From Octopus vulgaris (taxonomy: Eukaryota), in the NCBI GenBank assembly GCA_951406725.2, contig OX597818.1, forward strand, positions 135,718,001 through 135,782,000: a DNA stretch of 64,000 nt, in the 5' to 3' direction. A program made the position numbers and the translations under genes. This document shows positions 13,571 to 30,500 of this stretch, piece after piece (positions within the stretch are counted from its first letter, which is position 1; the number at the start of each line of letters is the position of its first letter). The notes under the pieces were generated by a model. It did not search any database, had not been told where the DNA came from, and was given only the letters and a program-made list of their open reading frames with translations.

Positions 13571-13705
13571 CTATATGTGTATTCTCTGTGTCGCCCCCCC
13601 TGCTTGACAATGGGTATTGGTTTGTTTATGTCCCCATAACTTCGCAGTTGAGTAAAAAAGACCAGTATAATAAGTACCAGGTTTAAAAGAAAAAGTACTT
13701 GGGGG

Positions 13706-14080
13706 TGTAAAGTATAGAAGCCATCTTATCATGGCTAACCACATTGGGGAGGGGGTATTACTGTAGCTTTATAGCCCCAAGAGATCTTCGTCTCTAGCTG
13801 GCTTTAGACACAATATCTGTGTCCTTGGAGTATTTGCAAAGGGAGGCCATCCCTTCCTCACAAGCCTGAGTGATACGCTCGAACTAGTTTCGGGATTGTT
13901 GTCCCTCGTCAACGGGCGGTAACCACCAGGTAGCGATGAAAGAGAAGGCTCCTTTGCAAATAGATATAAGTTTTTCTAATGGCGTCTGCCACTGATGTCG
14001 AAAAACGAACAGTAAGCATAATTAAATCTCAGAATGAGATTGAAACAGTAATCGCTCGATAATGTAAAGTATAGAAGCCA
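13706..14080 (-). mobile_element. HHR-bearing 357-bp non-coding unit with 18-bp terminal redundancy (retrozyme-like)
   Basis: tgtaaagtatagaagcca occurs at 13706-13723 and 14063-14080. The unit sits in a SINE tail that lacks this 18-mer. An HHR lies at 13876-13918. Confidence 0.65.
13876..13918 (-). ncRNA. Minimal type I hammerhead ribozyme (C3U variant)
   Basis: Minus strand reads cgcccg TTGACGA GGGA-caacaa-TCCC GAA ACTAGT T^ cgagcg, with palindromic stem III ACTAGT. Confidence 0.7.
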
Positions 14081-14371
14081 ACAAGTTAGTGCCCCATCTT
14101 GGCTGCAGTATAATGACTGAAACAAGTAAAAGATACTGAGATACAACCCAAATGAATAAAGAAGAAGTGTCCAAGTGACATGGTCAGGAAGACATAAAGT
14201 GATATCATATATTCTAGTAGTTATAAATCTGCCTTGTAAAAGAAAACGTTTTTTATGACTCTTGAGACAACCAGTGCCATTGTTGACATCACTGTCGTAG
14301 CTGTCACTATTGGTAACTCTATCATTGAACTATCTCTATTAATCATAACCCCCAACCATGGTAACAACAAG

Positions 14372-28230: not shown

Positions 28231-30500
28231 CACCACCACCACCATCATCATCGTTTAACGTCCATTTTCCATGCTGGCATGGGTTGGACGGTTCGACTGG
28301 GGTCTGGGAAGCCAGGAGGCTGCACCAGGCCCCCATCTGATCTGGCAGTGTTTCTACAGCTGGATGCCCTTCCTAACGCCAACCACTCTGAGAGTGTTGT
28401 GGGTGCTTTTTATGTGCCATTGGCACAAGGGGCCAGAGGAGCTGGCATCGACCACGATTGGATGGTGCTTTTTTTTATGTGCCACCGGCATGTAAGCCAG
28501 TTAAGGTGGCACTGGCATTGGCCATGTTTGGACGATGCTTTTTATGTGCTACTGGCATGGGGCTCACAACTACAATTTCCATTTGATTTTATTTTGATAT
28601 TGCTGATGTTGATGTACTTGACTCAATAGGTCTCCTCAAGCACAGCAGGTCGCCCTATGATCCAAGGTACTTTTGAGTGGGCTGGTTATGCGACACTGGT
28701 GTAGGTTACAGCTGTGGACTCACTTTATTTGCCAGGTCTTATCAGTAACAGCATACTTCCAAAGGTCTCTGTCTTTTGTCGTTGCCTCTGTGAGGCCCAA
28801 CATTTGAAGGGCATGCTACGTCACCTTGTCCTATGTCTTTCTGGGTCTCCCTCTACCCTGGATTCCTTCCACTATTTGGGAGTGGTACTTTTTCACACAA
28901 CTCTCCTCGTCCATCTGCAGTACATAATCATACCAACGCAAACGTCTCTCTTGCACTCCACATCTAATGCTTCTTATGTCTAATATTTCTCTCAGGGCAC
29001 TTACACTCTTGTGTATGCAACTGACATTACACATCCAGCAGATCATGCTAGCTTCGTTTCTTTCGAACCTACGCATGTCTTCAGCAGTCACAGCCCATGT
29101 TTCACTGCCGTGAAGCATGGCAGTTCGCACACATGCATCATACAATCTCCCTTTCACTCTGAGCAAAAGGCCCTTTGTCACCAGTAGTGGTAGAAGCTTT
29201 CTGAACTTTGCCCAGGCTATTCTTATTCTAGTGGTAACACTCTCTGAGCATCTACCCCCACTACAGACTTGGTCACCTAGGTAGCAGAAGCTATCAACTA
29301 CTTCTAGTTTCTCCCCCTGGCATGTGATGGAGTCCGTTTTCTGAGCATCTGTGGTGCTTATTGCCCCTGTGCATTTGCTGCACATGTGTCTTCCCGGTTA
29401 ATCTTCCTTTGATGTTGCTGCACTTCTTATGTGTCCATAGCTTACACTGGGTACATCTTAAGGAATTTCTACCTACACCTTTTCTACAGATTGAGCGGGG
29501 TACCCCCTGAAGGGGCGTGTGATGTGTTCGCCTTCCTACTTACTAGAAGTTTGGTCTTTGCAACATTGACTCTAAGGCCCTTAGATTCTAAATCTTGCTT
29601 CCAAACTTGAAGTTTCTTCTCTAGTTCTGGTAGTGATTCTGCTATGAAGGCCAGATCATCAGTATAGAGGAGTTCCCAGGAGTAACCTGTCTTGAATTCC
29701 TCTGTTATTGCCTGGAGGACTATGATAGGGGCTGAGGGCTGATCCTTGGTGGACCACTACTTCCACCCAGAATTCTTCACTATACTCATTGCCAATCCTA
29801 ACCCTACTGACGGCATCTCTGTATAGGGCTTGTACATACTTATTAAGCATTCGTAAATCCCAGTTTCCGCATCACTCACCAGAGAAGGAATTGGGGCACC
29901 CTGTCAAAGGGTTTCTCCAAGTCCACAAAAGCCGAATATAGGGTTTATCTTTGGCTAGGTATTTCTCCCACAGTTTCCGTACCAGGAATATAGCATCAGT
30001 GGTGCTTCTACCTGGAACAAAACTGAACTGCATCTCATCTAAGCGGACTCTCTCCCTAATTAGTTGGGCTATGACCCTCTCTATGACTTTCATCCTCTGA
30101 TCCAGCAGTTAGATACCCCTGTAGTTATTTCTATCTAAAGCATCACCTTTATCTTTGTAGCAGTTGACTATGGTGCTGCTATGCCAGTCATTGGGTATGA
30201 CTCCATCATGAACTACCTGGTTTACAATATGGGTGACTAGACCATAGCCCACACCACCAGATGTTTTAAGCATATCAGCAGTGATTCCTGATAGGCTGGG
30301 GGCTTTTTCTGGCTTCATATCCTTAATTGCTTTATCTACCAGGGTGCTGTTTATTCAGATAGCTGGTCCCTCTATTGGATCAACATTTGGCAGGCTCTTC
30401 TCCTCCCACTCATTCACCACGTTCAACAGTCTTTCACAATGGCTCCTCCAAGCCTCTTTCTTTTCCAAATCATTAAAAGCAAGTGCATCATCATCCATGT
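28231..30500 (-). mobile_element. 5'-truncated RTE-clade LINE (RT pseudogene, 3' UTR and (GAT)n tail)
   Basis: Frameshifted RT: KAPSLSGITADML, NNYRGI, QFSFVPGRSTTDAIF, HQGSALSP, ELLYTDDLA, FCYLG, AMLHGSETW, RRLRWY, GRGRPRKT. Confidence 0.92.

Follow-up and report, generated by a model that had tools for sequence, protein, structure and literature searches.

How did a 375-bp stretch that carries a hammerhead ribozyme come to lie inside a SINE of Octopus vulgaris, and what is the 18-mer that stands at both of its ends? A direct repeat in this position could be a target-site duplication (TSD) made at integration, or a terminal redundancy of the element itself, as would arise if the RNA that was copied were circular or concatemeric and copying ran slightly past one full turn. 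We examined the insert within a stretch of 64,000 nucleotides (the window), which consists of repeat-rich animal DNA, and in contigs from public sequencing runs. The features that we describe are collected in Table 1.

Table 1. Features of the insert and its host SINE, in window positions
Feature	Position	Strand	Basis
5' part of host SINE, interrupted by the insert	13572..13705	+	72-81% identity to many window SINE copies; alignment
357-bp non-coding unit, one full turn	13706..14062	minus (ribozyme-sense RNA)	repeat spacing, GC, circular fold, contigs
18-mer, copy 1; putative start of first-strand cDNA	13706..13723	+	exact repeat; X1 record 1 matches to 13707
Predicted hairpin, putative reverse transcription start (13706) at its 3' base	13706..13743	minus	predicted helices
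Predicted interrupted rod with ribozyme at tip	13831..13962	minus	z -5.05 (13825-13968); helices with pair probability >0.5
Extended helix I, internal loop UUAC / UA	13860..13930	minus	Rfam HH9 alignment, full model 1-77
Type I hammerhead	13876-13918	minus	strict descriptor, Rfam HH9, folding
18-mer, copy 2; putative overrun beyond one unit, joins SINE at 14081	14063..14080	+	exact repeat; joints 14063->13707 and 14080->13801
3' part of host SINE	14081..14135	+	alignment; empty-site contig

The ends of the insert and the empty site

The insert comprises a unit of 357 bp (44% GC) plus 18 bp, the two exact copies of the 18-mer being spaced by 357. In the alignment, the SINE, which we take to be of an octopus-type family, matches on the left flank until about 13705 and picks up again at 14081. 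The sequence-only reading had correctly recognized an interrupted SINE but had let it resume at a gtgcccc motif rather than at 14081. Both the alignment and the empty-site contig described below indicate that about 28-30 bases of the SINE middle are missing between the two parts. There is no second copy of the unit within the 64-kb window, and the next best match to the 18-mer there has five mismatches. Exact 18-mer repeats are not rare in the window (13 non-simple ones at spacings of 100-1000 bp, including the insert's own), so the significance of this one lies in its exact bounding of the insert.

A TSD should leave an orthologous empty site that contains the 18-mer once, and we looked for such a site. 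In a DNA run, a single 166-nt contig (X1 record 1) leads from 13707 to 14081 with 28 SINE-like letters between them; by eye, the 18-mer does not occur in these letters. The depth of the contig is 49, and that of the unique right flank 37. This contig differs from window positions 13617-13707 at 4 of 91 bases, whereas other SINE copies are only 72-81% alike; the empty site is known from this one contig. The related sample from which it comes is not identical to the window, 3 of 245 bases in the right flank being different. Because this contig lacks the 18-mer, the repeat is not a TSD. The 18-mer is also absent from all ten other window SINE copies picked by a regular expression, as had been claimed from the sequence, and depth across it is high and equal to that of neighboring family sequence; two read-through joints, described below, place it inside other copies. 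That the 18-mer belongs to the element, as the sequence-only reading had proposed, is therefore directly supported. A true TSD around a 339-bp element is scarcely credible on this evidence, even though those TSDs that metazoan retrozymes do show exceed 4 bp according to the part of the literature available to us (PMC7229834).

At insertion, about 28-30 target bases were deleted and none was duplicated. The TG at 13706-13707 is common to the empty site and the element and constitutes a 2-nt microhomology; the right junction (14080/14081) has none. Neither junction of the filled site is bridged among the listed contigs, those of X11 included, whose right flank is identical to the window, and a skeptic might suspect that the assembly fused a SINE with a collapsed repeat. 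We regard this as highly improbable: compared with the empty site, the junctions are clean; the insert has near-private letters at 13757 and 13860, where more than 99% of family depth has another base, which is what a real single locus should show; and the contigs listed are a small part of all pieces.

Ribozyme, predicted fold and coding content of the unit

The hammerhead is the sole strict type I descriptor match on either strand of the window (0.075 matches per shuffled window, 40 shuffles), and Rfam HH9 matches 13860-13930 of the minus strand with 32.3 bits (E 2.6e-6), short of the gathering score of 52. The motif described earlier at this place, and its predicted cut at 13881/13882, were both recovered at the same positions. 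No Rfam family reaches gathering level anywhere in the window; three other Rfam matches (E 1.8-8.7) were dismissed as chance.

Helix I (13918-13913/13881-13876) forms five of its six pairs, with one mismatch; helix II has 4 bp and a CAACAA loop, lacks a bulge after A9 and is followed by GAAA; and helix III has 2 bp and a palindromic cap. Two loops known from canonical metazoan type I ribozymes, the internal one in helix I and that of helix II, fall within the HH9 alignment, and the long helix II, bulge after A9 and short helix I of the minimal hammerhead are not seen. Although the overall shape is thus canonical, the predicted core (U3-U-G-A-C-G8-A) is atypical in two respects that go beyond the earlier description: U3 stands opposite G8, and the cleavage triplet is GUU. 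Both U3-G8 and GUU would be expected to weaken cleavage. We found no report of activity with U3-G8 in the literature searched; in PAc, the available text of one study has the 3-8 pair as required for cleavage (PMC11167929).

An inverted pair had been noted around the hammerhead, and it proved to consist of perfect 12-bp arms (13831-13842 / 13951-13962) that form the base of a longer, interrupted rod in the predicted fold. Folding of the circular monomer, suggested as a check by the sequence-only reading, predicts a highly self-paired molecule (64% paired; z -4.6 for the minus strand and -3.5 for the plus strand) in which the ribozyme would be left free to fold, since forcing the active hammerhead core costs only 0.1 kcal/mol. 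The helices of the predicted hairpin at the start of the unit are 13743-13739/13710-13706 and 13736-13731/13724-13719.

The unit is non-coding and contains no Penelope coding remnant. Its longest stop-free stretch has 68 amino acids; none of the nine open stretches scanned, out of 13 of at least 20 amino acids, matches a retroelement Pfam family; and three Penelope-type proteins of one clade gave a best tblastn E of 1.1 against the doubled unit. No RT/GIY-YIG ORF ends or starts next to the ribozyme in the unit itself, and there is no LTR pair, the end repeat being only 18 bp. A match to DUF1492 (E 0.012), below the cutoff, was dismissed as chance.

The unit resembles the Schistosoma SINE-like repeats, as the accessible text of a review describes them (PMC6765202), in that it is short and carries a hammerhead that would free monomers from multimeric transcripts. 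It differs from them in lacking a Pol III A-box, neither strand having a match at one mismatch; what it does have is a B-box-like word with one mismatch (window 13876-13884, overlapping the predicted cut site) and a T5 run on the ribozyme-sense strand (window 14001-14005, near a step in depth described below). No tRNA gene was found in it either. A Pol III SINE with a hammerhead, of the Schistosoma type, was ruled out because of the missing A-box.

A multi-copy family: joints, depth and variants

At least half of the element's words occur in 20 of 24 listed runs (10 studies, 5 coded organisms), and the viral contigs and prokaryote genomes searched have none of them. We aligned contigs of four public runs to 13575-14350: X1 and X11, which are DNA runs, and X5 and X19, which are RNA by guess only and whose contigs cover the unit and not the unique right flank. 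Contigs lie along the whole unit in all four. Summed contig depth over the unit, relative to unique flank, is 984-9,665x in X1 and 250-3,277x in X11; after division by 31 for contig overlap, the minimum comes to 8-32 copies where the unit is thinnest and 100-300 where it is thickest, figures that are not true copy numbers. The 357-bp unit is a multi-copy family.

Among 15 of the 128 joints between contig pieces, 12 connect SINE to SINE and three lie within the element, all of them in X1; the rows listed for X11, X5 and X19 have no element joint. One X1 contig (depth 99.8) joins 14063 to 13707, a distance of 357, and another (depth 78.2) joins 14080 to 13801 through 28 letters that resemble 13724-13744 by eye; by these two joints, the 18-mer is followed by the start of the unit in other copies. 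The third, from 13859 to 13708 in one X1 contig (depth 127), leads 152 bases back with three letters between, and is a partial duplication or a shorter sub-unit without the ribozyme. Depth changes little across the unit junction (ratios of 1.12, 0.85, 0.87 and 1.13 in the four runs) and varies about tenfold or more elsewhere. Because of the read-through joints and this level depth, we conclude that the unit is continuous around its junction. Both observations fit true arrays and permuted monomers alike; no complete tandem dimer with two ribozymes occurs among the contigs listed.

Depth is lowest at 13913-13990, rises 3.4-5.6-fold from bin 13991-14016 to bin 14017-14042 in X1, X11 and X19 (not in X5), and holds a plateau from about 13860 through the junction to about 14017. 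Because of this step in three of four runs, many members may share only about 250 bp of the unit, which hints at a more abundant relative with just that part in common. The step reflects either subfamilies that diverge upstream of the ribozyme, 5'-truncated copies that end at about 14017, or a longer parent that shares the ~250 bp. Depth also hints at preferred ends rather than freely permuted starts; the contig end table has no pile-up of recurrent ends, contigs being poor for showing them.

Two contigs appear to be diverged relatives. X19 record 19 (479 nt, depth 52.9; matching 13758-13904) and X11 record 13 (matching 13829-13911) have only the ribozyme and the downstream arm in common with the unit, at 88-90%, and continue for 331 and 1237 further letters, respectively. 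X19 record 19 appears to have the GUC triplet and the loop-2 consensus.

We analyzed 27 of the 34 element variants listed, the other seven having less than a 1% share in both DNA runs. Twenty-one of them keep a predicted pair or fall in unpaired positions, against 15.5 expected under a substitution-matched null (p 0.014); counting unpaired positions alone, 15 of 27 against 11.7 expected is not significant (p 0.13). Two of the six apparent pair breaks, at 13812 and 13818, are partners that jointly give a G-U pair. The three variants within the ribozyme all lead towards known forms. As shares of depth in the two DNA runs, a GUC triplet makes up 11% and 26%, the loop-2 consensus of HH9 22% and 14%, and an A8 that would pair with U3 11% and 28%. 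U3-A8 is a natural covariation, found in Schistosoma Penelope ribozymes; the A8 variant sits at a CpG and may reflect deamination. Because position 3 is not among the variants listed, most copies probably have U3-G8, and most seem to carry both U3-G8 and GUU. This common core may be tuned down.

Class, template and enzyme

By the features that can be tested in sequence, the insert would be classed as a metazoan non-LTR retrozyme in the sense of PMC7229834. Such retrozymes have units of about 150-450 bp and GC below 50%, and those of mussels measure 350-390 bp in the available text (Cervera and de la Pena 2020, PMC7229834). The insert shares with them a non-coding 357-bp unit of low GC, a canonical type I hammerhead with a 2-bp helix III, a predicted self-paired circle with a foldable ribozyme, and many genomic copies. 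It differs in being a 1.05-mer with one ribozyme, with a target deletion and no TSD, and with the U3-G8 and GUU core. In the parts of these papers accessible to us, the canonical hammerhead shape is tied to retrozymes (PMC7229834) and contrasted with the minimal forms of Penelope elements (PMC4209133). Plant LTR retrozymes were also considered and rejected: they have a type III hammerhead, LTRs of ~350 bp and a 4-bp TSD, and the octopus insert has a type I ribozyme, no LTR pair and no TSD.

The insert also resembles the retrozyme 'monomers' of Li, Clavereau and Pollet (bioRxiv 10.64898/2026.07.22.740005), which, in the portion available, are dispersed, solo, full-length units of similar size. 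The same portion regards solo monomers as possible non-transposing offspring of active dimers or multimers, and as non-autonomous Penelope derivatives. The survey, as far as its available text goes, covers 31 vertebrates, three insects and one coral, with no molluscs and no analysis of junctions or overruns. No octopus or cephalopod retrozyme, and no 'more-than-unit' retrozyme copy, was reported in the literature that we searched, some supplements and subscription papers lying outside it; 'ribozyme' and 'retrozyme' do not occur in the main text of the O. vulgaris repeat annotation, nor do four motifs of the element in the supplement of PMC8557442. More-than-unit copying from a circle has already been proposed. 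The element class is already known, and the octopus unit is an added member with an unusually informative junction, one that would extend retrozymes to cephalopods.

We consider it likely that the insert stems from RNA of a metazoan non-LTR retrozyme, either circular or head-to-tail and uncleaved, which was reverse-transcribed, probably by Penelope-like enzymes, such that a 357-bp unit plus 18 bp replaced about 28-30 bp of SINE. Transcription of head-to-tail source loci would supply the RNA; the hammerhead would cut it at 13881/13882, and the monomers may be ligated into circles. A target 3' end in TG would pair with two nucleotides of the RNA at 13706-13707, and reverse transcription would start there, inside the RNA. 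The predicted hairpin has its 3' base at this point, which is 176 nt downstream from the predicted cut. With the plus strand as first-strand cDNA of the ribozyme-sense RNA, the reverse transcriptase would then cross an intact ribozyme junction, finish 357 nt and overrun by 18 nt, and the cDNA end would be joined bluntly to resected target DNA.

A cleaved linear monomer is excluded as the template because its end would be at 13881/13882. Because of the atypical core (U3-G8, GUU), we give a circle and an uncleaved multimer equal weight as candidate templates. The sequence-only reading had proposed a circular or concatemeric RNA whose cDNA extends slightly beyond a full turn; this stands as the best account of the insert, in which we infer the form of the RNA itself. 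Since a single ribozyme cannot release a monomer, the insert is likely dead-end offspring. As a young copy with an empty orthologous site, it records the points at which copying would have begun and stopped, an intact passage across the ribozyme junction, and the loss rather than the duplication of target sequence.

The same junctions might instead be the work of DNA repair, a double-strand break in the SINE having been patched by copying DNA of the unit, either an extrachromosomal circle or a tandem array, so that RNA would have played no part at the locus. The target deletion, the absent TSD and the 2-nt microhomology do fit break repair, and any 375-bp window of a 357-bp array has an 18-bp terminal repeat. 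Such a patch, however, does not predict a length so close to exactly one unit, nor a start at the 3' base of a predicted RNA hairpin, and insertions of Penelope type often lack a discernible TSD as well; we judge it improbable.

That Penelope enzymes reverse-transcribe animal retrozymes by a rolling-circle mechanism has been hypothesized in print, on the grounds, in the available text, of co-occurrence, shared ribozymes and phylogeny, and recently active Penelope elements have been reported in O. vulgaris (31 families, 336 insertions). For PAc, the accessible part of PMC11167929 describes an internal start of reverse transcription, a 30-40 nt tail delimited by two such starts, and no need for the ribozyme to cleave, a pattern that agrees with a Penelope enzyme here. 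The unit itself resembles Penelope pseudo-LTRs, as far as the available texts describe them (PMC4209133, PMC11167929), in its type I hammerhead, palindromic helix III and U3 variants, in the putative internal start of reverse transcription downstream of the ribozyme, and in the more-than-unit copying proposed for them. It differs in having no ORF in or beside it, in its 4-bp helix II without a bulge after A9, and in closing on itself at 357 bp.

In a rival account of its origin, the unit would derive, as a minority form, from an autonomous Penelope-like element that is itself abundant: a pseudo-LTR of ~250 bp, spanning the ribozyme, the junction and the sequence up to about 14017, would have been closed through an internal deletion or by means of a short spacer. 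The insert would then be a by-product of that element instead of a member of a self-sustaining retrozyme lineage. The depth plateau with its step at about 14017 in three of four runs, and the two contigs that have only the ribozyme and downstream arm in common, would be accounted for in this way. Non-autonomous head-to-tail derivatives are known for Chlamys elements; Penelope repeats have optional tails of 30-40 bp, and 13706 and ~14017 lie about 46 nt apart on the circle; and retrozymes have been argued to derive from pseudo-LTRs, in the available text of bioRxiv 10.64898/2026.07.22.740005. We nevertheless think this origin unlikely, given the lack of Penelope or other retroelement matches reported above and a ribozyme that is canonical, not minimal. 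The thin part of the unit, moreover, is still multi-copy and bridged by contigs in all four runs, and a true Penelope family that served as contrast looks different, with a minimal ribozyme, up to about 1.5 kb of common upstream sequence (at two loci), and 3' ends that lie, counted from the cut region, near +54 and +97, where the unit has +176. No parent Penelope element for the octopus unit was identified in our searches.

That contrast family, from another animal, was found in metagenome contigs at 54 of 57 loci, the other three (L008, L046 and L047) looking like chance. Its hammerhead has a CUGAUGA core, a bulge, a long helix II and GUC; its copies are 5'-truncated, with inverted pairs in four loci. 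The motif alone is common to this family and the unit (best E 0.12 over all 57 loci).

The preferred reading, a retrozyme RNA copied by a Penelope-like enzyme, can be carried one step further, though only as a tentative suggestion that we think may well prove wrong. Reverse transcription of a circular retrozyme RNA would begin at either of two fixed internal positions, 13706 and about 14017. Each of these lies immediately 3' of a hairpin, and the roughly 46 nt between them would be the counterpart of the Penelope 'tail'; progressive 5' truncation would follow, with an occasional overrun. If true, this would be direct junction-level evidence of which enzyme moves animal retrozymes and of where on the circle it starts.

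The window also holds a 5'-truncated Penelope-like fragment of its own (1532-2182, minus), flanked by (TA)n on both sides. It has a GIY-YIG end (Pfam E 0.018, below the cutoff) and is 39-46% identical to two longer RT/endonuclease-like proteins; its Cys linker presumably marks it as Neptune type. Its stop is followed, some 200 nt on, by a degenerate type I hammerhead (1336-1274) with a long helix II and a palindromic helix III, found only with one core mismatch; about one such match is expected per shuffled window. By alignment, the 3' region of this fragment is unrelated to the 357-bp unit: the two scores, 24 and 28, compare with 23 on average for shuffled sequence, whose maxima were 33 and 32. 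Farther along, at about 28831-29397 (minus), is a decayed RTE-like LINE fragment, whose best named protein match is from Octopus bimaculoides, at 74% identity.
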